Below the pieces are notes generated by a model, which did no database searches, was not told the origin of the DNA, and saw nothing but the letters and a program-made list of their open reading frames with translations. Of a stretch of DNA of 44,273 nucleotides, positions 6,449-22,926 are shown in pieces. Source of the stretch: Nitrospinota bacterium (GTDB lineage: Bacteria > Nitrospinota > Nitrospinia > UBA9942); the NCBI GenBank assembly GCA_016234205.1, contig JACRGN010000086.1, positions 1-44,273 on the forward strand, read 5' to 3'. Each line of letters begins with the position of its first letter. Position 1 is the stretch's first letter. Made by a program: the position numbers and the translations under genes.

Positions 6449-7051
6449 ATGAAATCAACCAATAAAAATATTGCTGTATTCATAGATAGGGATGGGACTG
6501 CCACTGAGGAGGTTGGATATTTAAACAATATAGAGCGGCTTAACCTAATTAAAGGCACATCTCATGCGATTAAGCTCCTTAATAAAAAAGGATTAAAGGC
6601 AATAGTTGTTACAAATCAGGCAGGTGTGGCAAGGGGATATTTCCCTGAAGAGCTTATCCATAAAGCCAACGAAAGACTTAAAAAACTGCTCTCAAAATCA
6701 GGCGCCTATCTGGATGGAATATATTACTGTCCTCATCATCCCGATGGGAAGAATGAGAAATACAGGAAAATATGTAATTGCAGAAAGCCAAATCCGGGCA
6801 TGATAGAAATGGCGTCCGATGAATTAGATATAGACATAAGCAGGTCATATGTAGTTGGAGATAAGTTGAGTGATGTCTCGCTTGCCCACAATGTTGGGGC
6901 AAAGGGGATTCTGGTACTCACGGGCTATGGAAAAGGGGAGCTTGAATACTTAAGTGGTGAATTTAAACAGAAACCTGATTATGTTGCAGACGACCTGTAT
7001 GATGCTGTTAAGTGGATTTTGAAGGATATAAGAACAAAAGAAAAAGATTAA
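6449..7051 (+). CDS. gmhB: D-glycero-D-manno-heptose 1,7-bisphosphate phosphatase (HAD family)
   Basis: HAD motif I FIDRDGT, the CPHHP...CNCRKPNPGM zinc-loop signature of GmhB, and GDKLSDV. Confidence 0.85.
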   Translation: MKSTNKNIAVFIDRDGTATEEVGYLNNIERLNLIKGTSHAIKLLNKKGLKAIVVTNQAGVARGYFPEELIHKANERLKKLLSKSGAYLDGIYYCPHHPDGKNEKYRKICNCRKPNPGMIEMASDELDIDISRSYVVGDKLSDVSLAHNVGAKGILVLTGYGKGELEYLSGEFKQKPDYVADDLYDAVKWILKDIRTKEKD

Positions 7052-7137
7052 GGAGAATGGAGAAAAGGGAGAAAAGGAGAAAAAAGAATCTAACTTATTA
7101 TCTCTCCATTTCTCCATCTTCTTCCCCCTTTCTCCTT
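7050..7137. repeat. Word palindrome (GGAGAAA/TTTCTCC words)
   Basis: AAGGAGAATGGAGAAAAGGGAGAAAAGGAGAAAA ... TCTCTCCATTTCTCCATCTTCTTCCCCCTTTCTCCTTA. Confidence 0.9.
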
Positions 7138-7157
7138 ATATGTTTTTTATAATTTAA

Positions 7158-8150
7158 ATGGACAAAAATAGATTAAAAAATATTTTAAAGAAATTTTCAA
7201 AACAGAAGGTAATGGTAATCGGCGACATAGTGGCTGATGAATATATCCTCGGCATGACCTCACGCGTATCAAGGGAGGCACCAGTTCTTATACTTAAATA
7301 TGATTCCCAGACTGTTCTGCCGGGGTGCGGGGGGAATGCTGTAAATAATATCCACTCTCTCGGAGGGACAGTGTTCCCTGTCGGCATCGTAGGAGATGAT
7401 GATATGGGAAGAAAACTCATTGCCCTTTTAAAAGAAAAAGGAATAAATACAGAGGGGATTGTATCAGATGAGGGGCGATTAACCCCAACAAAGACAAGAA
7501 TACTTGCGGGCGGCTCTAATACGACTAAGCAGCAGGTAATAAGAATAGACAGGGAGAATAGTAATATAATAAATAAAAGGGCAGAAGAGAAGCTCTTAAA
7601 GATTTTTAATGGGATGGCCAAGATGATGGATGCCATCCTTGTTTCAGATTATGGGCTCGGGACCATTTCTGAAAAAATCTTAAATAGTATAAACAGGCTG
7701 GCAAAAAGCGATAAAAAGGTTATCACTGTTGATTCTCGCTTTGATATTCTAAAATACCGTCACATAACAGCCGCCACACCAAATACTGAGGAAGTAGAAT
7801 TTGCACTAAATACCACATTAAATGGAAATACTATCAACAAGCATGGCAGAAAGATTCTCAGCCAGATTAAGAGTGACGGTCTCCTTATAACAAGGGGTAA
7901 AGAAGGGATGACCCTCTTTGAGAAGGATGGCGGAATTACCGATATAGATATTTACGGGACTGATCAAGTGGCAGATGTGACAGGTGCAGGTGATACCGTC
8001 ATTAGTGCATTCACACTTGCACTTGCCGCAAATGCTTCAATGAAAGAGGCAGCCAGACTCGCAAATTATGCAGGGGGCATTGTTGTTATGAAGAGCGGGA
8101 CTGCCACGGTAAATACTCAAGAAATCGAGAGAGCTATTGATAATGGGTAA
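7158..8150 (+). CDS. hldA: D-glycero-beta-D-manno-heptose-7-phosphate kinase (RfaE domain I as a stand-alone gene)
   Basis: PfkB-type kinase: VMVIGDIVADEYILG..SRVSREAPVL and C-terminal DVTGAGDTVISAF. No SD precedes 7158; an alternative ATG at 7212 has a weak GAAGG. Confidence 0.85.
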   Translation: MDKNRLKNILKKFSKQKVMVIGDIVADEYILGMTSRVSREAPVLILKYDSQTVLPGCGGNAVNNIHSLGGTVFPVGIVGDDDMGRKLIALLKEKGINTEGIVSDEGRLTPTKTRILAGGSNTTKQQVIRIDRENSNIINKRAEEKLLKIFNGMAKMMDAILVSDYGLGTISEKILNSINRLAKSDKKVITVDSRFDILKYRHITAATPNTEEVEFALNTTLNGNTINKHGRKILSQIKSDGLLITRGKEGMTLFEKDGGITDIDIYGTDQVADVTGAGDTVISAFTLALAANASMKEAARLANYAGGIVVMKSGTATVNTQEIERAIDNG

Positions 8151-8679
8151 GTTAAAAAATCTTAATGAACTCAATAATATTGTTAAGAAATGGAGGGAGA
8201 AGGGGAAAAAGGTAGTATTTGCAAACGGCTGTTTTGATATCCTTCATGTGGGACATATAAGATATCTGAAGGAGGCAAAAGAACTTGGTGACCTGCTCAT
8301 AGTAGCAATAAATAGTGATTCCTCTGCAAAAAAACTCAAAGGGGATGGCAGGCCTGTAACACCTGAAAATGAAAGGGCTGAAATCGTAGCCGCTATTGAA
8401 TATGTTGACTATGTAACTCTTTTTAACGAGCCGAATGTATCCAATCTCCTTTTGACTCTAAAGCCTGATATTCACGCAAAGGGGACTGATTACACTGAAG
8501 ATAGTGTCCCTGAGGCTGATACTGTGAGGGCATACGGCGGAAGGGTGGCAATTACAGGTGATAAAAAAGAAAGGTCATCTACGGAGATAATAAAAAAACT
8601 AAATAAACCACAGACTAACACAGACTTTAAAAATCAAAAAGAACGAAGACTTAATGAAACCACAGATTACACAGATTAA
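8137..8679 (+). CDS. hldC: D-glycero-beta-D-manno-heptose-1-phosphate adenylyltransferase (RfaE domain II)
   Basis: Cytidylyltransferase motif VVFANGCFDILHVGHIRYL. Overlaps the kinase gene by 14 nt. The last ~25 codons read into a CACAGAT-type repeat. Confidence 0.85.
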   Translation: MIMGKLKNLNELNNIVKKWREKGKKVVFANGCFDILHVGHIRYLKEAKELGDLLIVAINSDSSAKKLKGDGRPVTPENERAEIVAAIEYVDYVTLFNEPNVSNLLLTLKPDIHAKGTDYTEDSVPEADTVRAYGGRVAITGDKKERSSTEIIKKLNKPQTNTDFKNQKERRLNETTDYTD

Positions 8680-8793
8680 CACAGATGACAGCATTGCTGT
8701 CATTCTGAGGACGAAGTCCGAAGAATCTCAAAGCGAGATTCCTCGCTTCGCTCGGAATGACATTTCTTTTTTTTAATCTGTGAAAATCTGTGG
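8658..8793. repeat. Nested palindrome: CACAGAT-word outer arms around a CATTCTGAGG/GAATCTC inner element
   Basis: Outer arms AACCACAGATTACACAGATTAACACAGAT / AATCTGTGAAAATCTGTGG. Inner arms TGTCATTCTGAGGACGAAGTCCGAAGAATCTC / GAGATTCCTCGCTTCGCTCGGAATGACA. Confidence 0.9.
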
Positions 8794-8804
8794 CTAAATA
8801 TATT

Positions 8805-9893
8805 ATGAATCGGATACTGATTGTCAAGCTTAGCTCTATCGGTGATGTTGTTCATGCCCTTCCGGTGCTAAGAACTATCAGGTATAACCTCCCCAATTCA
8901 TACATTGCGTGGATTGTTGAAGAGAAGACAAGGGAAATACTGGAGGGGAACAAAGATGTTGACAGGATTATTACTATAAATACTAAAAAGTGGCGCAAGG
9001 GAATGTCATTGCGAGGCGACCCTGAACTTGATTCAGGGGAAGCAATCCCAGCCATATTCAGAGAACTATTGAATGTTATAAACACACTCAGAAAAGAGAG
9101 ATTTGATACCGCAATAGACCTTCAGGGGCTTATCAAGAGCGGTGTTATTTCATATTTAAGCAGGGCAAAGACCCGAATTGGATTTGATTCAGGAAATTGC
9201 AGGGAATCTTTAAACATCCTATTTACAAATAAAAAGGTCTCTCCTGAAAAGGAAGACAGCCATGTAGTTGATAAAAATTTAAGCCTCCTTAAGCCTTTCG
9301 GTTTTAAGGAAATTAAAAGAGATTTTTTTATAAGTCCTTCACCGAAAGATGACAAATATGTAAATGATTTTCTCTTGAAAAGCAGGATAAATGGAAAGCC
9401 CATTATTGCAGTCAATTTAGGTGCAGGCTGGAAGACAAAGGAATGGGGCATAAAAAATTACGCCGGACTGTGCGACCGTATCATTTCAGAAATTGGTGCT
9501 AATATTATTCTTACATGGGGACCCGGCGAGGAGAATATGGTAAAGGGTATTATGGATTTAATGGCATATAAGCCCTTCGTCGCACCACCTACTACATTGA
9601 AACAGCTTGTTGCACTCTTAAGAAGATGTGAACTTTTTATAGGCGGGGATACAGGACCTCTCCATATAGCCGCGGCACTGAAAATACCAACTGTTGCAAT
9701 TTATGGCCCTTCTGACCCATTAAGAAATGGCCCTTATGGAGATAATCATTTTATAATACATAAGAAAATTGAGTGCAGTGGATGCTACAAGAGAAGTTGT
9801 GATACAATTGAGTGCATGAAAATAATTTCAATAGATGATGTTTTCTCGGCAGTTACTAAACAAGTATCAAGTATCAGAGTATCAAAGTATTAA
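8805..9893 (+). CDS. GT9 family LPS heptosyltransferase (WaaC/WaaF-like)
   Basis: ILIVKLSSIGDVVHALPVLRTIR and GGDTGPLHIAAAL motifs. The track ORF starts at GTG 8790; ATG 8805 is the more likely start. Carries an in-frame repeat insertion at 9005-9048. Confidence 0.8.
   Translation: MNRILIVKLSSIGDVVHALPVLRTIRYNLPNSYIAWIVEEKTREILEGNKDVDRIITINTKKWRKGMSLRGDPELDSGEAIPAIFRELLNVINTLRKERFDTAIDLQGLIKSGVISYLSRAKTRIGFDSGNCRESLNILFTNKKVSPEKEDSHVVDKNLSLLKPFGFKEIKRDFFISPSPKDDKYVNDFLLKSRINGKPIIAVNLGAGWKTKEWGIKNYAGLCDRIISEIGANIILTWGPGEENMVKGIMDLMAYKPFVAPPTTLKQLVALLRRCELFIGGDTGPLHIAAALKIPTVAIYGPSDPLRNGPYGDNHFIIHKKIECSGCYKRSCDTIECMKIISIDDVFSAVTKQVSSIRVSKY
9005..9048. repeat. Half CATTGCGAG element inside the heptosyltransferase CDS
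   Basis: GTCATTGCGAGGCGACCCTGAACTTGATTCAGGGGAAGCAATCC, translated in frame as SLRGDPELDSGEAIP. Confidence 0.8.
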
Positions 9894-9930
9894 GACTTTG
9901 ACTCTTTGATACTTTGTATCTTTGACACTT
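9862..9930. repeat. Word palindrome (GTATCAAAG words) spanning the heptosyltransferase stop codon
   Basis: AAGTATCAAGTATCAGAGTATCAAAGTAT ... CTTTGACTCTTTGATACTTTGTATCTTTGACACTT, then TTT. Confidence 0.9.
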
Positions 9931-9949
9931 TTTAAAAGGAGGAGGAATT

Positions 9950-10141
9950 ATGCCAATAGATAAGGAACTTTTGGATATCTTAGCATGCCCCAAATGTAAA
10001 GGGGATATATATCTTACCCATGATGGAAATGGGCTCATCTGTAAAGCCTGTAAGCTTATGTATGAGATTAAGGATGATATACCAATAATGCTGATTGATG
10101 AGGCAGTAAAACTTGATGAGAATCTTAATCCGATAAAGTAA
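9950..10141 (+). CDS. Trm112/UPF0434 family small zinc-ribbon protein
   Basis: 63 aa with LLDILACPKCKGDL...CKAC..YEIKDDIPIML. A strong SD (AAGGAGGAGG) lies upstream. Confidence 0.8.
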   Translation: MPIDKELLDILACPKCKGDIYLTHDGNGLICKACKLMYEIKDDIPIMLIDEAVKLDENLNPIK

Positions 10142-10154
10142 CAACAATCTAAAA

Positions 10155-10216
10155 GTGTCAGTGTCAGTGTCAGTGTCAGTATTTTTTTCTGACACTGACA
10201 CTATTCACTGACACTG
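10155..10216. repeat. Word palindrome (GTGTCA words)
   Basis: (GTGTCA)x4 + GT ... TGACACTGACACTATTCACTGACACTG. Confidence 0.9.
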
Positions 10217-10230
10217 CTTTATAATTTCCT

Positions 10231-11862
10231 ATGTCTTTTATGAAAAAAGAAAGCGGAAATATCCAATCCCTCAACTCCTTTTTTGGTGAAGGGACATTTA
10301 TGAAGGGAGTTTTAAAATTTAGCGGGGCGCTCCGTTTTGATGGCAAATTTGAGGGAGAGATAATAACTAACGATACCTTCATAATTGGGAAGACAGGGGT
10401 AATAAATGCAAACATATCAACGGGCACTCTTTTAAATTCAGGTGAAGTTACTGGAAATGTATCGGCAAATCATAAAATAGCTATTCATTTGGAGGGGAAA
10501 CTCCTCGGCAATATAAAGACACCAATATTATACATACAAGAAGGGGCGCAATTTGATGGAAACTGCGAGATGCACAGGGAAAGGAAAGAAAGAGCAGCAG
10601 CAACAGGTCAGTTACCCTTTGAGAAAAAGAGAGGTTACTTACAATCTATAAGGATAGATAAAAAACGGATAAAAATTACTGCAGGAGTTTTGGCAGGCTT
10701 ATTAATTATATTTGCCTTGTATAATCTTAGGGGTAATTTGAATATCAGAGATAAATTTAAGAGCTTGATAAAGCGAGAAGACCCTTCAGAACTTATTCAG
10801 AAGGGTCTATCACTAAAAGAGAGCGGCAGGACAGATGAGGCAATAGCAACATTTAAGAGATTGGCAGAGTTGAATTCACAGGACACTGAGATGCATCTGT
10901 CAACTGCACAGGCATTTACAGAGATGGGATTAGAAGATGAATCTATATCAGAATACGAAAAGGCTATAAATCTTAACCCTGAAAATTTAGAGCCATATCA
11001 CAAACTGCTTCAGTTATATACAAAAAAAGAGATGGATGATGGTGCAATTGCCACACTAAAAAGAATTATAGAGAGGGATAACAAAAATTTAAAGATGCAT
11101 CTTGATTTAGCGGCTCTGTATGAGAAAAAGAATATGTTGAATGATGCATATCGGGAATATAAAAGTATAATAGCCCTTGCACCTGACCACGAAGAGAGTA
11201 TTTACAATCTCGGTGTAATAAGCCTTTCTAAGGGATTGGATGCTGAGGCAGTTGAAATGTTTAAGAGGGTCATAAAAATCAATGATAAAAACATAGAAGG
11301 GCATCTGAATCTGGCCAATATTTATTACGAAAAAGGATTAGATGGTGAGGCATTAAATGAATATAAAAAAGTAGAAGAGATTGACACCCAGCATCCTGAA
11401 TCATCCAATAATAAGGGTTTTAACGCCATTAGTTTAGAGAAATTAGATACAGCGGCAGCAGAATTCAATAAAGTTATAAGAGCTGATGAAAAAAATGTGA
11501 GGGCTCACCTTGGGCTTGCCATAATATATGGACGGAAAGGGGCTAATGATAAGGCAATTCAGGAATGCAAGAAGGCAATTGAAATATCACCGCACCATGC
11601 ACCTGTCTTGAATAGACTGGCATGGTTATATGCAAAACAGAATATAAATATAGATGAGGGTATTAAATTATCAAGAGAGGCAATCCAGATAAATTCAAAC
11701 TCGCCTGAATATTTGGATACCCTGTCAGAGCTCTATTATATAAAGGGGGAGTTTGATAATGCCATTGAGACCATAAATAAGGCGATAGGTTTAAAGTCTG
11801 AAGATATTTATTACAAAAAACAGCTAAAGAAATTTACTGCAGCAAAAAGAACAAAAACCTAA
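10231..11862 (+). CDS. Bactofilin-domain / TM helix / TPR-repeat fusion protein
   Basis: The N-terminal ~110 aa match the bactofilin (DUF583/CcmA) pattern FMKGVLKFSGALRFDGKFEGEI..IGKTGVINANI..G.V.GNV. TM segment ITAGVLAGLLIIFALY, then about 9 TPR units. Confidence 0.65.
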   Translation: MSFMKKESGNIQSLNSFFGEGTFMKGVLKFSGALRFDGKFEGEIITNDTFIIGKTGVINANISTGTLLNSGEVTGNVSANHKIAIHLEGKLLGNIKTPILYIQEGAQFDGNCEMHRERKERAAATGQLPFEKKRGYLQSIRIDKKRIKITAGVLAGLLIIFALYNLRGNLNIRDKFKSLIKREDPSELIQKGLSLKESGRTDEAIATFKRLAELNSQDTEMHLSTAQAFTEMGLEDESISEYEKAINLNPENLEPYHKLLQLYTKKEMDDGAIATLKRIIERDNKNLKMHLDLAALYEKKNMLNDAYREYKSIIALAPDHEESIYNLGVISLSKGLDAEAVEMFKRVIKINDKNIEGHLNLANIYYEKGLDGEALNEYKKVEEIDTQHPESSNNKGFNAISLEKLDTAAAEFNKVIRADEKNVRAHLGLAIIYGRKGANDKAIQECKKAIEISPHHAPVLNRLAWLYAKQNINIDEGIKLSREAIQINSNSPEYLDTLSELYYIKGEFDNAIETINKAIGLKSEDIYYKKQLKKFTAAKRTKT

Positions 11863-11866
11863 CTGA

Positions 11867-11961
11867 AACCACAGATTACACAGATTAACACAGATTTTAA
11901 AATCTTATTCTTATCCATTTCTCCTCGTTATCTTGTGTCAATCTTGTGAAATCTTGTGGTT
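11867..11961. repeat. Word palindrome (CACAGATTA words), imperfect
   Basis: AACCACAGATTACACAGATTAACACAGATT ... TATCTTGTGTCAATCTTGTGAAATCTTGTGGTT. Confidence 0.8.
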
Positions 11962-12003
11962 ACTCTTATAATTCCCTACACATTGCAAAAAAATAAATCC
12001 AAA

Positions 12004-12021
12004 AAATGCATGAAAGCATTT
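12004..12021 (-). terminator. Probable terminator after the minus-strand lipoprotein gene
   Basis: Minus strand AAATGC-TTTCAT-GCATTT followed by a T-rich tract (TTTGGATTTATTTTTTT). Confidence 0.45.
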
Positions 12022-12041
12022 GTTCATTATTTGGGATAAAA

Positions 12042-13011: not shown

Positions 13012-13053
13012 CAGGCTATTGACAGATTCAACATCAGGTATTATATTATAGTT

Positions 13054-13552: not shown

Positions 13553-13563
13553 AATATTAGCTG

Positions 13564-13613
13564 ATTACACAGATTTAATCTATGTAATCTTGTCTTTTAA
13601 TCGGTGTAATCTA
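13564..13613. repeat. CACAGAT-type palindrome between panC and panD
   Basis: GATTACACAGATT/AATCTATGTAATC with no loop, plus an extra AATCGGTGTAATC copy. Confidence 0.8.
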
Positions 13614-14465: not shown

Positions 14466-14473
14466 GTAATTAT

Positions 14474-14643
14474 TAGCCACAGAGTTCACAGAGAATGCAG
14501 AGGAAAACAATAAGGAGAAATGGGGAAATTTGAGAAAGGGGGAATGGGAAAAATATTTTATTTTCCCTTTTCTCCATCTCTCCATCTTCTCCCTTTCTCC
14601 TTAATCTTTTTTGTTTTTGTCTTTCTCTGTGCCTCTGTGTCTA
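14474..14643. repeat. Two-layer nested word palindrome between panB and panC
   Basis: Outer arms TAGCCACAGAGTTCACAGAGAATGCAGAGG / CTTTCTCTGTGCCTCTGTGTCTA. Inner arms AAGGAGAAATGGGGAAATTTGAGAAAGGGGGAATGGGAAAA / TTTTCCCTTTTCTCCATCTCTCCATCTTCTCCCTTTCTCCTT. Confidence 0.9.
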
Positions 14644-14644
14644 A

Positions 14645-15496
14645 TTAAGTTTTTGTTCCTTTCTGAACAGGGCGGAGATGTCTCTCTTCCATAAAATAGC
14701 TGTGGTCATCTGTAGGAAAATTCCCATCTGCCACATCCTTAATATATTCCTTTACCGCATTTTTAATAATCTCTCCTCCCTCTACATATCTCTTCACAAA
14801 TTTCGGTTTAAATTCCCCTGACAACCCAATAATGTCGTGAATAACCATAACCTGCCCGTCACAGAACTGCCCTGCACCAATCCCAATAGTGGGTATTTTT
14901 ACTTTCTGTGTTATCTCTTTAGCCAATTCAAGCGGTATCCCCTCAAGCACAATTGAAAATGCCCCTGCATCTTCCAAAGCCTTTGCATCCTCAATTATAT
15001 CCCTTGCCTGTATAGATTTTCTGCCCTGAACCTTATATCCGCCAAACTTATGTATTGACTGTGGTGTAAGCCCTATATGCCCCATGACAGGTATACCTAC
15101 CTCCGCAATAGCATTTACAATCTCCTGCATGGCAATCCCGCCCTCTAATTTTACTGCCTCTGCCCCACCCTCTTTTATCAGCCTGCCTGCGTTTTTTAGT
15201 GCATCATCAATAGAGACCTGATAGGACATGAAAGGCATATCTGCAACAAGAAGGGCACTCTTAACCCCCCTCTTCACAGCCTTTGTGTGATATATAATAT
15301 CTTCAAGAGTCACAGGGAGGGTATTTTCATAACCGAGGACAGTCATCCCGAGTGAATCACCGACCAAAATGATATCTATACCTGCCTCATCTATAAGCTT
15401 TGCAAATGGATAATCATAGGCAGTCAGGGCGGCAATCTTTTTCCCCTCAGACTTCATTTTCTGTATGTCAATAATCGTGACCTTGTTCTTTTCCAT
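14645..15496 (-). CDS. panB: 3-methyl-2-oxobutanoate hydroxymethyltransferase
   Basis: LTAYDYPFAKLIDEAGIDIILVGDSLGM motif. SD GGGAGG lies 8 nt upstream of ATG 15496; ATG 15502 is too close to the SD. Confidence 0.9.
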   Translation of the reverse strand: MEKNKVTIIDIQKMKSEGKKIAALTAYDYPFAKLIDEAGIDIILVGDSLGMTVLGYENTLPVTLEDIIYHTKAVKRGVKSALLVADMPFMSYQVSIDDALKNAGRLIKEGGAEAVKLEGGIAMQEIVNAIAEVGIPVMGHIGLTPQSIHKFGGYKVQGRKSIQARDIIEDAKALEDAGAFSIVLEGIPLELAKEITQKVKIPTIGIGAGQFCDGQVMVIHDIIGLSGEFKPKFVKRYVEGGEIIKNAVKEYIKDVADGNFPTDDHSYFMEERHLRPVQKGTKT

Positions 15497-15502
15497 TACC
15501 AT

Positions 15503-16820: not shown

Positions 16821-16850
16821 AATAAAAATTCCCCATACATGGGGGGAATA

Positions 16851-17825: not shown

Positions 17826-17837
17826 CCTATATTCCCT

Positions 17838-19070
17838 TCAAAATTCAAGTTTCATCTCCGATAACCTTTTCCGAACCTCTTCCATAACCCTCTTTTCCTC
17901 CTTCTCCCCATTTGCAATGAATGTAGCAGAGAGACGGATATAGTGTCCAACATCATCCCATGGAACTGTAGAGATTAATTTCTCTGTTATAAGATACTCG
18001 GAAAAGTCCTCAGCCAGTTCAAACCTCCTTCCGCCTTTTATACCTTTTGGCGCCCTTACATATAAATAAAAAGAGCCTCCTGGCATTTTTGCATTAAAAC
18101 CAACTGAATTTAATACATCTACCATCATCTTGAGTCTTCTCTTATATTTTTCACAGATGGCATCAGTTATTTCAGGATGCTCCAACGCATGAATACCTGT
18201 CTTTTGTATTGCTATGAACTGTCCTGAATCATAATTGTCCTTTACGAATCCAAACCCGCTTACCACAAGGGGATTGCCTGTTACAAATGCCAGTCTCCAT
18301 CCTGTCATATTAAAAGCCTTTGATAGAGAATGAACCTCCACACCAACATCTTTGGCCCCGGGAATGGAGAGAAAGCTTAAAGGCTTTCCGCTATAATTCA
18401 ATGAAGCATAAGCCGCATCCTGAACTACTACAATATTATTCTCCTTTGCAAACCTTATAACTTTTTTATAGAATTCTGCATTGGCAGTAGCACCTGTTGG
18501 ATTATTGGGATAGTTTAAATAAAGGAGCTTTGCCCTTTTTCTCATATCATTTGGTATTGAATCTAAATCAGGCATAAACCCATTTTCTTCTTTTAATGAC
18601 AGATTATAAACCTCCCCGCCATACCACTTCGTATGAGTTGCTATTACAGGATAGCCCGGCACTGTCATAAGGGTAACATCACCGGGATTTATATAAATAG
18701 CAGGAAACATCGCAAGGGCTGGTTTAGAGCCTATGGAATGGAGCACCTCATTTATAGGGTCAACTGATACCCCATATATCTTTTCCATATACTTTGAGGC
18801 TGCATCCTTGAACTCCTGTATCCCATTGTCTGCATAACCCCTGTTTTCGGGTTTTGTGCACTCAACCTGCATTGTCTTAACAACCTCAGGGAAAGCCATC
18901 TCGTCAGGCTCCCCGACTCCGAGGTCTATAAGCTCAACACGAGGGTTCTTCTCCTTTGCAGCCCTCTTTGCCCTCTTGATTTTTTCAAACTTGTATATCT
19001 TTGTATCCTTCCCAAATTTTTCCCCTCCGAGCCTTTCGGCAAAGATGGACTGTATGTAACTCTCTGCCAT
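17838..19070 (-). CDS. Class I/II PLP aminotransferase, LL-diaminopimelate aminotransferase-like
   Basis: LIDLGVGEPDEM...NNPTG...SLSKAFNMTGWR (PLP lysine), 410 aa. Assigning it to DapL rather than a generic aminotransferase is inference. Confidence 0.6.
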   Translation of the reverse strand: MAESYIQSIFAERLGGEKFGKDTKIYKFEKIKRAKRAAKEKNPRVELIDLGVGEPDEMAFPEVVKTMQVECTKPENRGYADNGIQEFKDAASKYMEKIYGVSVDPINEVLHSIGSKPALAMFPAIYINPGDVTLMTVPGYPVIATHTKWYGGEVYNLSLKEENGFMPDLDSIPNDMRKRAKLLYLNYPNNPTGATANAEFYKKVIRFAKENNIVVVQDAAYASLNYSGKPLSFLSIPGAKDVGVEVHSLSKAFNMTGWRLAFVTGNPLVVSGFGFVKDNYDSGQFIAIQKTGIHALEHPEITDAICEKYKRRLKMMVDVLNSVGFNAKMPGGSFYLYVRAPKGIKGGRRFELAEDFSEYLITEKLISTVPWDDVGHYIRLSATFIANGEKEEKRVMEEVRKRLSEMKLEF

Positions 19071-20113
19071 TAAACCTCCCTATTTATACCCTTTTTCTTT
19101 AATTTTTCTATTAATGTAGTCCTCTTTATACCAAGCAGATTAGCAGCCTTTGCCTTATTCCATTCTACCTTTTTCAATGCCTCAAGTATAAGTTTGTTTT
19201 CAAAATCTTCTACCATTTGATTTAGATTAATGCCACTTTCAGAAATATTTATAGCTGGCTGAGATGTATCTTCAATGGCTGCATTATCAGATATGACCAG
19301 CCGTTCATCTTCAGTATGAATATGGGGCTTCCCATCCCATTTCTGAACCTTTTCAGGCAGGTCTGCCGGCCTTACAATCCCTTTCCCTTTTAATATAACT
19401 GTCCGTTCAATTATATTTTCAAGTTCCCTCACATTCCCGGGCCAGTGATATTCAGATAGACATTTCATTGCCTCCTCTGAAAATCCCTCAATATTCCGGT
19501 TTTTTATGCGGTTGAACTTCAATAAAAAGTGATTTGCCAAGATTGGTATATCCGATTTTCTCTCTCTGAGCGGGGGGATTGAAATGGGGATTACATTTAA
19601 TCTGTAAAAGAGGTCTTCCCTGAATTTATTTGATTCAACCTCCTTCTCCAAATTCCTGTGGGTAGCGGCAATAACCCTGATATCAACCTTCAGGGATTTC
19701 ATTCCGCCCACCCTTTCAAACTCCTGCTCCTGAAGAACCCGTAACATTTTAACTTGAAGGGCAGGGCTCATATCACCTATCTCGTCAAGGAATATCGTGC
19801 CGCTGTCTGCAAGTTCAAACTTCCCCATCCTCATCCTTATGGCACCTGTAAATGAGCCCTTCTCGTGACCAAACAACTCGCTCTCAAGGAGCTCCTCCGG
19901 GATTGCACCGCAATTTACAGGTATAAGGGGTTTGTCTGCCCGTCTGCTGTTATAATGTATCGCCTTTGCAACCAGTTCCTTCCCTGTCCCGCTCTCGCCA
20001 AGTATCAAAATCGTACTGTCATCATCCAATATCTTTTCTACAAGGGATAAGACACCCTTTATCTTCTCGCTTTCCCCTACAATACCGCTAAAGTCAGGTT
20101 TGGTGGCAGGCAT
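19070..20113 (-). CDS. Sigma-54-dependent transcriptional activator (AAA+ plus Fis-type HTH) with no N-terminal sensory domain
   Basis: Walker A GESGTGKE begins about 40 aa from the N-terminus. GSFTGA loop, RERKSDI, and C-terminal AANLLGIKRTTLIEKLKK. Its stop overlaps the aminotransferase ATG (TAATG). Confidence 0.88.
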   Translation of the reverse strand: MPATKPDFSGIVGESEKIKGVLSLVEKILDDDSTILILGESGTGKELVAKAIHYNSRRADKPLIPVNCGAIPEELLESELFGHEKGSFTGAIRMRMGKFELADSGTIFLDEIGDMSPALQVKMLRVLQEQEFERVGGMKSLKVDIRVIAATHRNLEKEVESNKFREDLFYRLNVIPISIPPLRERKSDIPILANHFLLKFNRIKNRNIEGFSEEAMKCLSEYHWPGNVRELENIIERTVILKGKGIVRPADLPEKVQKWDGKPHIHTEDERLVISDNAAIEDTSQPAINISESGINLNQMVEDFENKLILEALKKVEWNKAKAANLLGIKRTTLIEKLKKKGINREV

Positions 20114-20288: not shown

Positions 20289-21554
20289 ATGCAAAGATAT
20301 TTTTTTCCTATTGCCTTTATCCTGCTATTCCTATTTTCTGCAAAGGTCTATTCTCAGCCTCTACCCTCACAGCCAGACGAACTCAAGCAGGGCATTTTCA
20401 ATCTTAAAGAAGAAAACTACGAAGAGGCAGTGGAGGATTTTAAGAAGGCGAGGGAGTTAAACCCGGACTCATCCATCACTGCATATTATCTCGGCATAGC
20501 CTATAAAAAGATTCAGAACTATCCCGAAGCAAAGACACATCTAAAAGATGCACTCACCCTATCACCAAAGGTTAAGGAGGCAGTCGTTGAACTTGCCGAT
20601 GTATTATATCAACTTGGAGAAATGAAAGAGGCATTAAAAGAGATTGAAATTGCAGATAGTCAGGGTATGAATACACCACAGACCACATTTCTGAAAGGTA
20701 TGCTCCTATTAAAACTTGGAATGGAATCAGATATAGTGATAGAAGAAAATATCATCATATACGGAGGAAAAAACTATTCCTATACCAAAAATGATGATGG
20801 GACTATAACAATAGAAGAAGGTCCACTAAGCAGCAGAAAATTTTATGTAGCCAATAAAGAGGCAAAAGAATCATTCAAGAAGGCAAAAACACTTGACGAA
20901 AAACTCACCACATCATCAGACTTTCAAATCGCAATGGCAACTATGCAGGAGGGGGATTTAAACGAGGCAAGAGATATATTCAAAGAGATTATAATAAAAG
21001 ACCCGAATGCAGACATAGCCCAATTTGCAAACCAGTATATAGATGCAATAACAAAGAGAATCAAAGAAGAAAGGCCATATAGACTCACAGCAGGCATCCA
21101 ATATCAGCATGACAGCAATGTAATATTAAAGCCGGGTGATGTAACAGCATCGGCAGGCATATCCGGAGAGTCTGACAGTGCAGGAATAATCAATCTGAGG
21201 GGAGAATATCTCCCAGGGTTAAAAGCACCATTTGGATTAAAGACACAATATTCTTTATACCAGAACCTTCATGGAAGATTAAAGAATTACGATGTCCAGA
21301 GTCATTCCATTGCAATTGTCCCCAATTACAATCTTACAAGCGGCTCAATAAGCCTTCTCACAAGCTATAACTTAACCCGTGTTGACAATCTTGACTATCT
21401 AAAAACCTTAACCCTCTCACCGACATATACCTTTTTTATTTCAAAAACGCAGTTTGCCACAGGCTCATTAAAATATCAGGATAAAAAATATGTAAAGGCG
21501 CCGACAGGTGCTGATGAGGACAGGGAGGGCAGTGATACTAATATTGGCATCTAA
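20289..21554 (+). CDS. TPR + beta-barrel outer-membrane protein (Slam/DUF560- or YaiO-like), the part upstream of an in-frame TAA
   Basis: Signal peptide, TPR units, then alternating beta-strand sequence (GIQYQHDSNV...). The frame is cut by TAA at 21552-21554. Confidence 0.6.
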   Translation: MQRYFFPIAFILLFLFSAKVYSQPLPSQPDELKQGIFNLKEENYEEAVEDFKKARELNPDSSITAYYLGIAYKKIQNYPEAKTHLKDALTLSPKVKEAVVELADVLYQLGEMKEALKEIEIADSQGMNTPQTTFLKGMLLLKLGMESDIVIEENIIIYGGKNYSYTKNDDGTITIEEGPLSSRKFYVANKEAKESFKKAKTLDEKLTTSSDFQIAMATMQEGDLNEARDIFKEIIIKDPNADIAQFANQYIDAITKRIKEERPYRLTAGIQYQHDSNVILKPGDVTASAGISGESDSAGIINLRGEYLPGLKAPFGLKTQYSLYQNLHGRLKNYDVQSHSIAIVPNYNLTSGSISLLTSYNLTRVDNLDYLKTLTLSPTYTFFISKTQFATGSLKYQDKKYVKAPTGADEDREGSDTNIGI

Positions 21555-21935
21555 TGGTTTTATCTGCTATTTGAAAACAAGGGTTTTATAAATGGACGAT
21601 ATGAATATAACAGAGAGGATGTAAAAGGGAAAAACTGGAAATACTCTGGCAATAGGTTTGGACTGAGTCTCCTTTCTCCACTAACACTGATTACTCAAAA
21701 CTTAACACTAAATTTAGGCGGGGAGGCATACTCACAGAACTTTGATAATACCCATACAGTATTTCTAAAAAAGAGAGGGGACACCACATATACCTTTAAT
21801 ACGATGCTGACATATAACATCTATGATGATGTTGATATTCAGTTGCAGTATGTGGACATCCGGGGTGTTTCAAATATATCAGTTTATGACTATAACAAGA
21901 ATATGGTAACTATTGGTTTGGAGGGGAGGTTTTAA
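21555..21935 (+). pseudogene. Same-frame continuation of the beta-barrel after the in-frame TAA (126 codons, no start codon), ending ...TIGLEGRF
   Basis: My own translation of 21555-21932 in the frame of the upstream ORF is stop-free and ends with the OMP-type terminal Phe (WFYLLFENKGFINGRYEYNREDVKGKNWKYSGNRFGLSLL...GLEGRF). Confidence 0.6.
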
Positions 21936-21956
21936 TTTATCCCGGATTATGCATTA

Positions 21957-22063
21957 ACCACAGATGAACACAGGTAAACACTGATAAAACAAAAACTTAT
22001 TATAATTCTTCTTTCTTTTAATTCATTAAATAACCTGTGTTAATCTGTGTTTACCTGTGGTTT
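21957..22063. repeat. Word palindrome (CACAG-type words) between the convergent OMP and LuxR genes
   Basis: AACCACAGATGAACACAGGTAAACAC ... CCTGTGTTAATCTGTGTTTACCTGTGGTTT, followed by a T run. Confidence 0.85.
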
Positions 22064-22085
22064 CACGCATTTTTTGGGTTTATAT

Positions 22086-22670
22086 CTATCTGGTGTGGGC
22101 TATAATCTCACCTCTTGAGGCAACATTCATCTTTCTCATAATATTTTTAATGTGGTCTTTTACTGTATATTCGCTGATGAATAGTTTTTCTGAGATAGTT
22201 TTATTTGAAAGCCCTTCACTGATGCACTCCAGCACTTCTAATTCTCTATTTGACAGCCCAAATTCTGCCCTAACTTTTTCAATGTCTGTCTGATGTCTTA
22301 AGATTATTTTTTCTAACAGCACAACAATGTGAGTTGGACTTTTGCTTTCAGGATTCCCCATAAAGGAAGCCCTCATAGAGCAAGTACCCATATCACTATG
22401 CAGCACTGCACAATTCAAATCAGTTGAAGCAGTTCCGATTTCATTTGCATTTTTTTTGAGACGATTGCAGAGACTATAAATCTCATTAAGAGTGTTCTGC
22501 CTTTTCTCTCCCTTTGCAGGCTTGCCCTCGAGTGAATCTATCGGGGGCTTCTGCAAATCAGGGAGCATATCCAATGCCTCTTTATTGGAATAGAGGAGAT
22601 TATTATCCATGTCAAAGATAAGCATACCGGGGGCTGAACGTCCTTTTATGATTTCATGCAGGTTGTCCAT
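22086..22670 (-). CDS. LuxR/FixJ-family transcriptional regulator with an N-terminal PAS-like sensor region
   Basis: C-terminal HTH LSNRELEVLECISEGLSNKTISEKLFISEYTVKDHIKNIMRKMNV. Confidence 0.8.
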   Translation of the reverse strand: MDNLHEIIKGRSAPGMLIFDMDNNLLYSNKEALDMLPDLQKPPIDSLEGKPAKGEKRQNTLNEIYSLCNRLKKNANEIGTASTDLNCAVLHSDMGTCSMRASFMGNPESKSPTHIVVLLEKIILRHQTDIEKVRAEFGLSNRELEVLECISEGLSNKTISEKLFISEYTVKDHIKNIMRKMNVASRGEIIAHTR

Positions 22671-22762
22671 AGTGCCAAACCATCTTCCCTTAATCTTTCA
22701 ATATGTTTAATATACAACAAAACGCTCATATTTTACACTATTAAAGGAACAAGAAAAAGATT

Positions 22763-22926
22763 AAGGAGAAATGGGGAAATTAGGGAAAAGGGGAAAAATA
22801 TTAAAAGTGTCAGAGTATCAGAGTATCAAAGTGTCAGAGTAAAAAAACTTTGACACTATGACACTTTGACTCTTTGATACTCTAATTTATCTCTCCATCT
22901 CTCCATCTTCTTCTCCCTTTCTCCTT
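22763..22926. repeat. Two-layer nested word palindrome in the LuxR/PilZ divergent region
   Basis: Outer arms are GGAGAAA-type (22763-22797 / 22890-22926). Inner arms are GTGTCAGAGTATCAGAGTATCAAAGTGTCAGAGT / CTTTGACACTATGACACTTTGACTCTTTGATACTCT. Confidence 0.9.

Follow-up and report, generated by a model that had tools for sequence, protein, structure and literature searches.

The 44,273-nucleotide contig JACRGN010000086.1 of a Nitrospinota bacterium (assembly GCA_016234205.1; hereafter the window) carries long hairpins built from short tandem words between its genes, and the question is what these hairpins are and how they came to be there. We consider it probable that the spacers of this groundwater Nitrospinota genome contain small mobile DNA palindromes with arms of short repeated words, which vary between close strains, nest in one another and rewrite gene ends.

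Word-hairpins in intergenic spacers

Direct reading of the sequence agrees with the original prediction at all 13 of the intervals it listed: every one is a long, imperfect palindrome with arms made of degenerate tandem word arrays. Each folds by MFE into one long imperfect hairpin, with z scores against 100 dinucleotide shuffles from −2.35 (13560–13615, the weakest) to −10.55 (14472–14646); the mean z of 120-nt coding controls is −0.24, with z < −3 in 3%. Both levels of repetition, words in tandem and arms in inverted orientation, were recovered by TRF and a repeat finder. The arms are indeed arrays of short words, but the proposed range of 6–9 nt does not hold, measured periods being 6–11 nt. 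Two-layer architecture is present at 8658–8793, 14474–14643, 22763–22926 and 43624–43741 as proposed, Pfam annotation confirms the placement of hairpins inside the apparent operons pilM/pilN and panB/panC/panD, and the GGAGAAA/TTTCTCC family is, as sequence, SD-like on one arm and anti-SD-like on the other.

Word-hairpins occupy about 16 of the roughly 27 spacers of at least 30 nt in the window (Table 1). A conservative detector, which calls a TRF array only where its reverse complement is matched within 300 nt, finds eight in the window; in related Nitrospinota DNA it finds 71 over 286 kb (2.5 per 10 kb), and in unrelated control DNA two over 99 kb. The loci used in counting had been ascertained by exact matches to element sequences. 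Beyond the 13 intervals there are further sites at 5850–5940, 23430–23507 and 24741–24990, and in-frame sites within genes at 2541–2641, 25009–25034, 36070–36130, 36995–37030 and 38707–38785. A companion GTCATTGCGAG-type palindrome family and some word arrays also lie in frame inside RlmN and RNase R.

Table 1. Word-hairpins, palindromes and arrays in the window (window coordinates; L numbers denote related loci).
Position	Strand	Feature	Basis	Gene context and relatives
322..410	.	GTGTCAG/GTGTTAG word hairpin, pilM (3' end)/pilN	MFE −34.6, z −6.4; Pfam PilN	
2541..2641	+	Decayed arrays, AATGCAG x4.4 then TTTACTG x4.9	TRF, sequence	Encodes PilQ N-terminus; related GCAGTAA/TACTGC hairpins in L001, L033, L068
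5850..5940	.	Double GTCATTGCGAG-type palindrome without word structure, aroB/hyp158 spacer	z −5.6	Identical in JACQBS strain L068; absent in L001, L003
7030..7153	+	Family 1 GGAGAAA element, HAD/pfkB: GAAC + AAAAGAAAAAGATTAA left end, purine-word arm, loop, pyrimidine-word arm, TTTTTTATAATTT right end	Folding, sequence, copies elsewhere	Left end supplies HAD stop codon, right end directly before pfkB ATG; genes overlap without spacer in L001; other hairpin (ACAGGATA) in same-species strain L068
8640..8795	+	Two-layer: left module GAACGAAGACTTAATGA, outer CACAGAT-word arms, inner GTCATTCTGAG...GAATGAC palindrome (8699-8762)	z −7.6	CTP-transferase ORF ends within left arm; GCAGTAA hairpin instead in L001 and L068
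9862..9932	.	GTATCAG/GTATCAAAG word hairpin, hepT/Trm112	z −4.3	Left arm encodes last ~12 residues and stop of heptosyltransferase; one terminal word only in L003; same-family variant in L068
10142..10230	+	GTGTCA word hairpin, then right module CTTTATAATTTCCT, then bactofilin-TPR gene start	z −9.3	CACGAATTTA hairpin in L068, GCAGATAAAC hairpin in L003, no hairpin in L001
11850..11975	+	Left module GAACAAAAACCTAACTGA, CACAGATTA word hairpin, TATAATTCCC	z −4.6	Convergent genes; identical in L068; 2-nt spacer in L001, L009
13553..13610	.	ATTACACAGATT hairpin, panC/panD insertion	Presence/absence across contigs	
14472..14646	.	Family 2 composite, panB/panC: CACAGAG-word outer arms (14474-14500, 14620-14643), inner GGAGAAA-type hairpin (14504-14610)	z −10.6	
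21955..22064	.	CACAGRT word hairpin, A/T-rich 55-nt loop	z −6.0	Convergent genes; near-identical copies in L025, L027
22745..22947	+	Family 1-type outer element GAACAAGAAAAAGATTAAGGAG ... CTCCTTATATGTTTTTTATAATTTCCT, GTATCAG word hairpin (22806-22883) nested in its loop	z −9.5	Divergent genes
23430..23507	.	GTCATTGCGAG...CTCGCAATGAC palindrome, true PilZ/FecR spacer	z −6.7	Listed 454-aa ORF over-extended; 310 aa in relatives
24741..24990	+	Left module GAACAAAAACATAATGA, CACAGAGG left arm (24761-24783), three GTCATTGCGAG-type units	TRF, sequence	Matching right arm absent
25009..25034	+	CTTAAC/ACCTTA array	TRF, sequence	Encodes hydrophobic core of NHL lipoprotein signal peptide; family forms hairpins in L003, L031, L052
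33066..33165	+	Left-module-like AACAGAAACTTATTAG, CACGAATTTA word hairpin, T8, SurA-like gene SD	z −7.2	Family copies in L033, L068
36070..36130	-	In-frame insertion in RNase R: half GTCATTCTGAG unit and AACTTTG array, encoding SSKFKVSSNVILSEAKNLN	Alignment, TRF, sequence	Faces 19-residue gap vs B. subtilis RNase R 8cdu
36995..37030	-	Second in-frame insertion in RNase R (SDPERSEGESN), from CCTGAGCGGAGCGAAGGG-type palindrome fragment	Sequence, alignment	11-residue gap vs 8cdu
37299..37390	.	GAGGGTTCAAG word hairpin, methylase gene/RNase R	z −3.0	Upstream ORF extends into arm; family copy in L021
38707..38785	-	GTCATTGCGAG-type double palindrome in frame in RlmN, encoding RLLCHFVPRNDTTASTVIASQRRSNLS	Alignment, sequence	Query residues 142-183 opposite 13 residues of E. 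coli RlmN 3rf9
43622..43743	.	Two-layer: outer GCAGATAAAC-word arms, inner GTCATTCCGAG...CAGAATGAC palindrome (43646-43712)	z −8.0	Convergent genes; GCAGATAAAC family in three other spacers of L003

Copies at unrelated loci share arms, loops and ends

Family 1 recurs as the same ~125 nt at no fewer than 15 unrelated loci across three species-level MAGs. A typical copy is near-identical to the others, and several look identical or nearly so when read by eye; mean identity is 91–93% overall and 0.93 between species, as against 81–87% for the orthologous genes of those species pairs. A 20-mer from the pyrimidine arm of Families 1 and 2 has 49 matches among 185,579 species genomes, 35 of them in five MAGs labelled Nitrospinota or Nitrospinae and one in L050, which is labelled Nitrospirae, carries the same composite and is itself 91–97% identical to a JACQEW contig; the other 13 are chance matches in coding sequence where the element is absent. 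Two-layer composites also recur as units, that of Family 2 at at least 10 other loci and that at 22745..22947 at other loci in L034 and L049.

Different word families have asymmetric end modules in common. The left module is A-rich, (GAAC)AAAARMCTRAT..TAG, with stop codons in two frames; the right module is a T-run followed by TATAATTTCCTATAC(ATGAAC), also in the form TTTTATAATTTCCTATAC, and places what looks like an outward-facing −10 box just before a start codon. We found 31 occurrences of TATAATTTCC in 334 kb, joined to at least five word families, where a rough estimate made without a computational tool gives about one or two by chance. Of 18 Family 1 copies, 16 have GAAC ahead of their left end, and by manual count about 19 of 25 matches to ATGAACAAA adjoin an element. 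A 21-mer from the right end is present at at least 81 metagenome loci; among the matches listed, more than half (counted manually) run directly into the left end of another element, and many lie at contig starts. At the junctions examined there is no clean target duplication, only imperfect repeats of 8–12 nt, and the junctions vary: one insertion follows CATGAAC, another follows CCTCC, and a third (L031 compared with L145) has neither end module.

Strains differ by whole elements

The presence/absence polymorphism sought at syntenic loci of relatives proved abundant. Between strains with 97–100% identical genes, elements are present, absent, replaced or nested with an extra layer. The panC/panD insert is absent in seven contigs that encode an identical PanD protein (panD DNA 97–98% identical) and have an ATGA gene overlap instead; it is present in one other contig, the 100%-identical L066 from Logan, and is absent from all more distant relatives examined (L001, L003 and L009) and from the same-species MAG L068. 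This insertion is very recent. Compared with L068, whose coding identity to the window is 91–100%, three spacers are identical, HAD/pfkB, CTPt/hepT and Trm112/bacTPR hold different elements, and pfkB/CTPt and panC/panD differ by insertion; a 184-nt two-layer insert upstream of panB is present in L068 only. Part of this difference, in the segment of lower identity (hepT, 91%), may reflect allelic recombination and not local turnover. L055 and L050 form one clean filled/empty pair.

The layers arise by successive insertion, as had been suggested, since orthologous copies in L020 and L051 (un-nested) and L034 differ by one nested hairpin. At panB/panC the window has two layers, a 97%-identical strain has three, and in an 87% relative the inner layer is a different one.

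Growth of these structures in place, without transposition, is a possible but rather doubtful alternative; the templated process for making word arrays that the original prediction offered beside insertion is possible as well. For growth in place, a short seed word beside a small inverted repeat would be multiplied by replication slippage, and intrastrand template switching or fold-back synthesis would copy the array in mirror image into the opposite arm; layers would come from palindrome tips that broke and were healed with new arrays, and identical copies elsewhere would arise only by recombination or gene conversion. More than 50 distinct words are present in the 286 kb of related DNA, with periods of 6–11 nt and most of them seen once or twice, which sits uneasily with a separate transposon family for each word and agrees with an origin in place. 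The arms also behave as word arrays and not as exact mirrors (complementarity 0.73 in register and 0.64 when shifted by one word), word number differs between copies of one element (window 22806 and L049), tandem arrays without a partner arm exist (24761–24783), and L003 has a single-word 'seed' where the window has the full hepT/Trm112 hairpin. The Family 1 loop already contains TCTGAC, the word of the GTATCAG hairpin later nested there and its possible origin, and the imperfect similarity of insert junctions to their targets is likewise consistent with local growth. Against this, Families 1 and 2 have asymmetric arms, loops and non-repetitive ends common to 10–15 unrelated loci in several species, which makes independent growth impossible for them, and whole units of 140–190 nt are gained in one step between strains with 97–100% identical flanks, with no intermediates.

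The elements are DNA-level repeats

We give considerably less weight to the proposition that host selection retains the hairpins as RNA elements, each regulating the genes beside it, for example as bidirectional intrinsic terminators, mRNA stabilisers, RNase III sites or translational couplers. Their positions are indeed at the ends of genes and their orientation follows that of operons, in the GGAGAAA families the stem is preceded by an A-run and followed by a T-run, and the panC/panD hairpin might bring a displaced GGAGG near the panD start; REP, ERIC and Correia elements have known side effects of this kind. The intrinsic-terminator reading of the original prediction fared poorly, as a T-run of at least four lies within 12 nt of the stem in only 7 of 15 elements. 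A consensus terminator scan of positions 1–20000 flagged a classical terminator at 15520–15547 and, among word-hairpin stems, only a small inner stem-loop at 14546–14567, although it requires a loop of 3–8 nt and at least three G-C pairs, so that long A/T-rich stems with larger loops are unflaggable anyway. Sense-strand stem mismatches show no bias towards G:U over A:C (85 and 93; p = 0.6), transversions are as common as transitions, and complementarity falls little on a one-word shift of the arms (0.73 to 0.64). Moreover, orthologous spacers are not conserved, relatives having another element or overlapping genes, copies lie inside coding regions, and the contexts comprise ten divergent gene pairs beside 42 co-directional and 14 convergent ones. 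The elements are DNA-level repeats rather than conserved RNA structures.

Relation to known repeats

Ordinary REP/REPIN-type elements spread by a RAYT are also hairpin-forming, extragenic, high-copy and lineage-specific, and asymmetric ends with no clean target duplication are what HUH enzymes working on single-stranded DNA would leave (REPIN description, PMC3116915). Nevertheless, we regard this identification as quite improbable. The elements are neither REP/BIME nor CRISPR, as originally stated: they are without the GTAG/CGTC head that defines REP (PMC3733652), and their units are 50–200 nt with tandem-word arms, compared with 20–40-nt palindromes or doublets of one REP. Families number in the dozens, where a RAYT has one to three. 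No transposase (including Y1), RAYT or recombinase domain was found among the 40 proteins of the window, and no multi-copy ORF cluster in 830 kb of related loci, a biased sample of about a tenth of any one genome. Cyanobacterial STRR/SDR repeats, which include heptamer-repeat hairpins, are a close published precedent, and Correia-type MITEs, REPINs and Drosophila foldback elements are among the closest others.

It is scarcely credible that short-read metagenome assembly produced the hairpins as artefacts or chimeras: many related contigs do start or end at the shared right-end module, so that repeats evidently break assemblies, but the elements lie within contigs between intact syntenic genes and are base-for-base identical, contexts included, in independent NCBI, ENA, JGI and Logan assemblies from different samples and pipelines (L003–L008; L066, Logan; L053 and L068, NCBI MAG).

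Probable foldback-type mobile elements

The explanation that we favour, and think likely, is that these are families of 50–200-nt non-coding, non-autonomous foldback-type mobile DNA elements specific to a groundwater Nitrospinota clade. They spread as DNA, and their landing places are gene boundaries, positions behind one another and the loops of resident elements, which gives rise to the layers. Their turnover by gain, loss and replacement outpaces the divergence of the genes on either side, and they rewrite a few codons at the end or start of adjacent genes. Insertion would occur in trans through an enzyme encoded elsewhere in the genome, which probably acts on single-stranded or hairpin DNA and may be HUH-like (IS200/IS605, RAYT or IS91 type); a microhomology-guided copy mechanism could serve instead. 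Either is suggested by the asymmetric ends, the lack of a clean target-site duplication and the near-copy of 8–12 nt of the target in which the insert ends. Once inserted, the word arrays would grow, shrink and diverge where they are through slippage.

Terminator or promoter activity, if any, would be a by-product and not the reason for the elements' existence. With its own stop codons, long A-run/hairpin/T-run and −10-like box, an element may sit in an operon without killing downstream expression, and this would explain why such elements are tolerated.

Tandem-word hairpins in intergenic spacers

The window is an ordinary bacterial chromosome segment (44,273 bp, 38.9% G+C) carrying pilNOPQ-aroB, an LPS-core heptose cluster (HAD phosphatase, PfkB kinase, cytidylyltransferase, heptosyltransferase and a Trm112-like protein), a bactofilin-TPR gene, panDCB with dNK, HPPK, aminotransferase and sigma-54 activator genes, and LuxR, PilZ and FecR genes together with those for an NHL-repeat lipoprotein, a SurA-like chaperone, RNase R, RlmN and pilins. 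A tRNA scan of the window found none, and the elements are therefore not tRNA-linked. The nearest named homologues of PanB, whose listed ORF begins two codons upstream of the called gene, are from metagenome-assembled genomes (MAGs) of Nitrospinae/Nitrospinota. Two contigs of one such assembly, MAG JACQBS (GCA_016194325.1, 'NC_groundwater_948'), are 91–100% identical to the window gene by gene, and a Logan contig from SRR12113407 matches it over 964 nt at 100% identity; the window thus represents a strain of the JACQBS groundwater species.

Every interval in which the original prediction placed a hairpin contains a long imperfect one, with degenerate tandem words in the left arm and their reverse complement in the right, and the four elements described as two-layered do have two layers. 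The arms are built of short tandem words as proposed, but the proposed word length of 6–9 nt is too narrow. Periods of 6, 7, 8, 9, 10 and 11 nt are all present, for example GTGTCA (6), AGTATCAG, AAGGAGAA and CACAGAGG (8), CACAGATTA(A) and CACGAATTTA (9–10), and GAGGGTTCAAG (11), and in 79 detected cases a tandem array has an inverted partner. Folded alone, the elements have minimum free energy z-scores of -2.35 to -10.55 relative to dinucleotide shuffles, compared with a mean of -0.24 for 120-nt coding controls. By manual count, with gene starts corrected, approximately 16 of about 27 spacers of at least 30 nt are occupied. With a conservative detector, the density of hairpins is 2.5 per 10 kb across 286 kb of related Nitrospinota DNA, against 0.2 per 10 kb across 99 kb from unrelated genomes. 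Those 286 kb contain more than 50 distinct words, the majority seen just once or twice. Copies identical in sequence and context are present in independent NCBI, ENA, JGI and Logan assemblies, and the elements are not assembly artefacts.

Positions of elements and other features in the window
Feature	Position	Strand
PilQ N-terminus encoded by AATGCAG and TTTACTG arrays	2541–2641	
Family 1 copy, HAD–pfkB spacer	7030–7153	
Family 2 copy, panB–panC spacer	14472–14646	
Companion family as inner layer	8699–8762, 43646–43712	
Companion family standing alone	5850–5940, 23430–23507, 24848–24990	
GTCATT[CG][CT]GAG matches	5881/5898, 8699/8761, 9005, 23433/23504, 24848, 24955, 24979, 36094, 38734/38750, 43646/43709	
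Small inner stem, flagged by terminator scan	14546–14567	
Classical terminator/attenuator hairpin after dNK, flagged by terminator scan	15520–15547	
dNK–panB leader, pan-motif-like	15670–15758	-
Pentapeptide-repeat/potassium-channel-domain gene	16851–17825	
TPR/DUF2860-type gene	20289–21943	
CTTAAC word array in NHL lipoprotein gene	within 24800–25060	
Terminator-like palindrome after 414-aa gene	29954–30014	
RNase R, AACTTTG array and half companion palindrome	36070–36130	-
RNase R, CCTGAGCGGAGCGAAGGG fragment	36995–37030	-
RlmN, double palindrome	38707–38785	-

Dispersal as near-identical units

Three GGAGAAA copies in the window have two different arms in common, and two of the three also share non-repetitive flanks. 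A 20-mer of the pyrimidine arm, scanned against one genome per species (185,579 species), gave 49 loci, 35 of them in five MAGs labelled Nitrospinota or Nitrospinae. L050, a locus in a sixth MAG labelled Nitrospirae, carries the composite element too and has its orthologue in one of these five; the remaining 13 non-Nitrospinota loci are chance coding matches without the element. Family 1, the GGAGAAA element, is about 125 nt long (GAACAAAAGAAAAAGATTAAGGAG...loop...CTCCTTATATGTTTTTTATAATTTCCT, with inverted arms beginning AAAAAGATTAAGGAG / CTCCTTATATGTTTTTT) and is present at at least 15 unrelated loci in three species. Its copies are on average 93% identical between species, several of them identical or nearly so by eye, compared with 81–87% for orthologous genes of the same species, a difference to be read with the bias towards young copies that comes from finding them by an exact 20-mer. 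Family 2 (about 190 nt) has an inner GGAGAAA-type hairpin inside outer arms of CACAGAG words and occurs at at least 10 loci, which indicates that the two-layer composite moves as one unit.

Different word families also have their ends in common. The left module is (GAAC)AAA[A/G]A[A/C]CT[A/G]AT..TAG, with stop codons in two frames, as in GAACAAAAACCTAATGA-AACCACAGAT, GAACAAAGACTTGA-ACACGAAT and GAACAAAAACCTGATTTTAG-ACAGGAT, and the right end is T-run-TATAATTTCCT(ATAC ATGAAC). There are 31 occurrences of TATAATTTCC in 334 kb, against roughly 1–2 expected by chance on our own estimate. In five families or more this sequence comes after the arms, and in 13 cases an ORF of at least 80 aa begins 5–23 nt downstream. 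ATGAACAAA adjoins an element in about 19 of its 25 matches (manual count), and the left end of Family 1 is preceded by GAAC in 16 of 18 copies. The 21-mer TATAATTTCCTATACATGAAC is found in at least 81 metagenome contigs and, in more than half of the contigs listed (manual count), is followed immediately by the left module of another element, showing that elements form tandem arrays. About 19 of the listed contigs carry one 211-nt element (marker test), and many of the listed matches lie at contig starts, an effect of a high-copy repeat on short-read assembly.

This 211-nt high-copy element was seen at loci L072 (4210–4440), L076, L081 and L117 and at some 15–20 other metagenome loci, often at contig starts. 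It consists of a left module, a CACAGAT-word arm, a G+C-rich hairpin CCCCTCCTTTGTAAGGAGGGG, a degenerate right arm and a right module; the small G+C hairpin is also inserted by itself (L110 compared with L106).

Turnover between relatives

We compared the window with syntenic loci whose PanB is 93% (L001/2), 87% (L003–8) or 80% (L009) identical, with loci encoding an identical PanD protein (L059–66), and with loci of the same-species MAG (L053 and L068). Orthologous spacers differ wholesale between the window and its syntenic relatives, strains and the same-species MAG, and the presence/absence polymorphism that a mobile element predicts was found even between near-identical strains. At the pfkB–CTPt spacer, the hairpin present in the MAG provides a new PfkB C-terminus (KQKT*) and a new start for the next gene (MNKI), and at Trm112–bacTPR a right-hand TTTATAAT..CCT-ATG-KCTTTT is common to all three occupied sites.

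Occupancy of orthologous spacers
Spacer	Window	Relatives
panC–panD	57-nt hairpin, also in a single 100%-identical contig	ATGA overlap in all relatives and in seven contigs with panD 97–98% identical
HAD–pfkB	Family 1	Same-species MAG, ACAGGATA hairpin; L003, another two-layer element; L001, no spacer
pfkB–CTPt	genes overlap	Same-species MAG, CACAGAT hairpin
CTPt–hepT	CACAGAT and GTCATTCTGAG	L001 and MAG, GCAGTAA hairpin
Trm112–bacTPR	GTGTCA	MAG, CACGAATTTA; L003, GCAGATAAAC; L001, no hairpin
bacTPR–hyp235	CACAGATTA	MAG, identical; L001 and L009, 2-nt spacer; L003, two other hairpins
dNK–panB	empty	MAG, 184-nt two-layer insert; L003–8, 260-nt nested insert

Layering by successive insertion, as had been suggested from the nested structures, can be followed at orthologous sites: the Family 1 copy at L020/L051 is simple, and its orthologue in L034 has a nested GTATCAG hairpin. 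In the panB–panC spacer the window has two layers and L059 three; L005 and L008 have the outer arms of the window around a GGTTTAAAC array, and in L001 the right arm stands alone.

Across 3918–14477, identity between the window and L068 is mosaic (pilQ 100%, aroB 99%, HAD 97%, pfkB 95%, hepT 91%, others about 98%), as would be expected had diverged strains recombined homologously around the LPS-core genes. The differences from the same-species MAG fall partly within the lower-identity tract (pfkB and hepT), so some apparent replacements relative to this MAG may be imported alleles.

Three further differences between relatives were noted. The ORF of the TPR/DUF2860-type gene has 421 aa and stops at 21554. 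Its orthologue in L003–L007 has 516 aa, and at 88% identity the DNA homology extends as far as about 21943; truncation or a frameshift of the gene is probable in the window strain. The pentapeptide-repeat/potassium-channel-domain gene lies between the aminotransferase and HPPK genes, which are adjacent in L001, L003–L008 and L059, where it is absent; L009 has only a 70-nt gap, and at least part of the gene is present in the same-species MAG (L053). Finally, a 186–189-nt insertion without word arrays separates the closely related metagenome contigs L131 and L070/L140, and may be another small mobile element of the same community.

Insertion junctions

The cleanest filled/empty pair is L055/L050, with flanks 97% identical. 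The empty site has ...TTTTGGTTCATG joined directly to AAAAGATT, and in the filled site 139 nt ending CTTTTGTTCATG lie between the same two sequences. In the orientation of the element, insertion is 3' of CATGAAC and the element's own end is CATGAAC; the fullest Family 1 copies, of which the one filling L055 is an example, have GAAC as their end. A true 7–12-bp target duplication is ruled out, since every Family 1 copy has the apparent duplicate GAACAAAAG unchanged, and the flanks of 15 Family 1 copies have no target duplication in common. The panC–panD junction has imperfect repeats, TGAAAGAAATA / TGAAAAGAATA, around the target TGAAGAGAATA, the dNK–panB junction has the imperfect repeats TTATTTTG / TTATTTTTTG, and L031/L145 has no repeat whatever. 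The four filled/empty pairs therefore display imperfect 8–12-nt repeats or none, and not a perfect target-site duplication of fixed length.

The asymmetric ends, the absence of duplication and an insert end that nearly copies the target disfavour DDE cut-and-paste transposition and would suggest an HUH-type single-strand or microhomology-guided copy mechanism. IS91/IS200-IS605-like single-strand mobilisation places an element 3' of a fixed tetra- to heptanucleotide, with no duplication and with asymmetric, hairpin-bearing ends. Family 1, including the L050/L055 pair, agrees with this pattern. The 184-nt two-layer insert upstream of panB does not, being flanked by CCTCC, and we do not regard IS91-like insertion 3' of GAAC as general to the elements; it is a lead only.

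Companion palindromes and in-frame insertions

A companion family without words, GTCATT[G/C][C/T]GAG ... GAAG[C/A]AATC ... and its inverse, occurs both as the inner layer of word hairpins and by itself, with 15 matches to GTCATT[CG][CT]GAG at ten places in the window. The GTCATTGCGAG-type motif has a density of 3.6 per 10 kb in the window, 0.1–0.35 in the two closest MAGs (207 kb) and none in the 80–93% relatives; depending on which motif is counted, the density of the family in the window exceeds that in the two MAGs some ten- to fortyfold. This reflects either a strain-specific burst or a local hotspot. A literature search on the GTCATTGCGAG motif returned only unrelated primer and plasmid matches, and no published family name.

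Elements also lie within reading frames. In RlmN, an in-frame GTCATTGCGAG-type double palindrome adds about 29 residues (RLLCHFVPRNDTTASTVIASQRRSNLS) relative to the E. coli protein (3rf9), placed after the radical-SAM cysteine motif and before the conserved block that follows it. RNase R has two in-frame additions relative to the B. subtilis protein (8cdu), one of 19 residues from a word array with half a companion palindrome and one of 11 residues. Word arrays encode the N-terminus of PilQ and the hydrophobic core of the NHL lipoprotein signal peptide; the listed NHL ORF start is probably wrong, and the real start is likely to be a GTG near 24995, giving a lipoprotein signal peptide.

Terminator and RNA roles

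The proposal that many of the hairpins act as intrinsic terminators was not supported. Such a terminator has a short G+C-rich stem and a small loop with a U-tract directly after it. Only seven of 15 elements have a run of four or more T within 12 nt, and their stems are 25–50 bp long, A/T-rich and mismatched. A consensus terminator scan of 1–20000 flagged the classical hairpin after dNK and one small inner stem and left the word-hairpin stems unflagged, although it requires a loop of 3–8 nt and at least three G-C pairs, and long A/T-rich stems with larger loops are beyond its reach. An ordinary G+C-rich palindrome with a T-run, GGGGAGGGTTT/AAACCCTCCCC, follows the 414-aa gene, and the genome thus uses classical terminators as well.

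Selection at the RNA level gave no signal when mismatches in stems between co-directional genes were compared (85 G:U in mRNA and 93 A:C, p = 0.6), and transversions are as common as transitions. Element-bearing spacers are co-directional in 42 cases, convergent in 14 and divergent in 10. Moving one arm out of register by a single word lowers arm complementarity only slightly, from 0.73 to 0.64. The arms therefore change as arrays do, through slippage or unequal exchange, and are not fixed mirror images of one another; the mirror-register signal for one-shot fold-back copying is weak. No Rfam model matches the window at gathering score; with the cut-off relaxed to E <= 1, the only matches to the elements are plant miRNA-precursor models that fall far short of threshold, a reflection of generic long hairpins. 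The elements are DNA-level rather than RNA-level.

The dNK–panB leader is a separate case. It is kept in relatives down to 80% PanB identity, scores 32.2 bits against the Rfam 'pan motif' (RF01749, gathering score 36.2), and has the classical G+C-rich terminator/attenuator hairpin and the panB SD on its 3' side; it is probably a genuine pan cis-regulatory RNA.

Relationship to known repeats

The elements fall outside the definitions of CRISPR, REP, classical MITEs (having no target duplication) and intrinsic terminators. Integron attC sites can be set aside by reasoning, since the elements lie between housekeeping genes in syntenic order and the core sites are not those of attC. The exclusion of CRISPR stands: the words are contiguous, of 6–11 nt, with the second arm inverted, whereas CRISPR direct repeats are of 24–48 nt with unique spacers. 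So does that of REP/BIME, as REPs are 20–40-nt imperfect palindromes with a GTAG or CGTC head (PMC3733652) and the present units, of 50–200 nt, have the end sequences GAACAAAAG..., AACCACAGAT..., GGACGCAGAT... and ...TATAATTTCCT, with no such head.

Two systems resemble the elements in part, with no homology implied for the first. Drosophila foldback (FB) elements, which are eukaryotic, kilobase-sized and have a DDE-type partner, likewise have long inverted arms of tandem sub-repeats with variable loop and arm length. Rickettsia palindromic elements (RPEs) are one main family of about 100–150 nt in an obligate intracellular lineage; they lie in frame in conserved genes and add a short peptide in a tolerant loop, as do the RlmN and RNase R inserts, but have neither word arrays nor nesting.

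IS91-type rolling-circle elements insert next to GAAC/CAAG, and Family 1 lies 3' of GAAC in the great majority of its copies (16 of 18). Like REPIN, IS200/IS605 and IS91 elements, those described here form hairpins, are extragenic, lack target duplication and have asymmetric ends. Unlike REPINs with their RAYT and the IS200/IS605-derived palindrome-associated elements (PMC3116915, PMC3733652, PMC6006769), they have much longer, word-built arms and many families, and no HUH gene was seen in the DNA sampled.

Family 1 is short, non-coding and multi-copy with terminal inverted repeats, as in the general definition of a MITE (PMC4853749). The elements as a whole resemble Correia-type MITEs in being non-coding, of 100–200 nt and high copy, with inverted arms that form a long hairpin, in lying co-transcribed at gene boundaries with promoter-like outward ends, and in strain presence/absence. 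Correia elements of Neisseria are MITEs with regulatory side effects and a TA target duplication; ours have no clean target-site duplication, asymmetric ends, arms of tandem words, dozens of families with common end modules, and no parent IS in the part of the genome sampled.

The nearest description is that of the STRR heptamers and small dispersed repeats (SDRs) of cyanobacteria. STRR heptamers are intergenic in Nostoc/Anabaena, and we know of no enzyme for STRR/SDR repeats. The heptamer arrays were reportedly described by Mazel in 1990, and SDRs nested inside them are said to have been documented by Elhai et al. in 2008 (Genome Res 18:1484). In both systems, intergenic arrays of short words often lie directly 3' of the upstream ORF, opposed arrays occur within one spacer, a genome has many word types, the same spacer can lack the array in close relatives, and small mobile repeats are nested; the hupS-asr0689 spacer of Nostoc, for example, has ttgtcagttgtcag... 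and ...ctgactactgac (PMC2408588). The differences are the period (6–11 nt here, fixed at 7 in STRR), the movement here of complete hairpins of up to three layers with conserved non-repetitive end modules, and the phylum, Nitrospinota. Intergenic heptamers are also present in Beggiatoaceae, Cyanobacteria and Bacteroidetes (PMC4679880) and in Xanthomonas and Nostoc (PMC4692102). MacGregor recorded one inverted set among 170 heptamer sets; the heptamers of all these groups are almost always direct, whereas inverted pairing is the rule here.

Mobilisation and consequences

The elements are real, dense and lineage-specific, dispersed as near-identical units, nested by insertion, polymorphic between near-identical strains and able to rewrite gene termini, and we file them as miniature palindromic mobile repeats. 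No RAYT (Y1 HUH), a gene that in REP systems usually has REPs on its flanks, and no transposase-like gene is present among the 40 window proteins, and in 830 kb of related loci, which only sample the genome, no ORF recurs that might encode a transposase; when a parent IS with the same ends was sought, the arm-to-arm distance was below 230 nt in every copy examined. We propose that the elements would be mobilised in trans by an enzyme acting on single-stranded or hairpin DNA, that insertions would be tolerated through the stop codons, the A-run, hairpin and T-run, and the outward -10-like box that each unit brings, and that the word arrays would drift by slippage.

The diversity of words could represent either many families or the products of one generative process. 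We think it unlikely, though worth stating, that this clade has a structure-guided system that both creates and moves word-palindromes, through recognition of a frame or hairpin, cassette swapping and nesting in loops. Such a system could be a hairpin/ssDNA enzyme or the repair of breaks at palindrome tips, adding word arrays symmetrically to both ends, and what it recognises would be either the hairpin or the conserved frame GAAC-AAAA... / ...TATAATTTCCTATAC. The outcome would be continuous rewriting of stop codons, spacers and promoters, and of the termini of housekeeping proteins as well, and the dozens of word families would be the output of one generative mechanism and not separate transposon families.

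In practical terms, the repeats fragment short-read assemblies of these groundwater bacteria and mislead gene callers into over-extended ORFs (panC, FecR and the NHL protein). Considered as miniature mobile repeats, the elements offer a natural system for studying how operons tolerate insertions, how non-coding short repeats are mobilised and how tandem-word palindromes originate, a question that dates from the cyanobacterial STRR/SDR descriptions. They part genes that overlap in relatives (panC/panD and pfkB/CTP-transferase), supply housekeeping proteins with stop codons, start codons and terminal residues, insert peptides in RlmN and RNase R, and may carry a promoter-like box of their own. 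If they are mobile as we propose, gene boundaries in this lineage would be a fast-evolving layer written by selfish palindromes rather than passive spacers.
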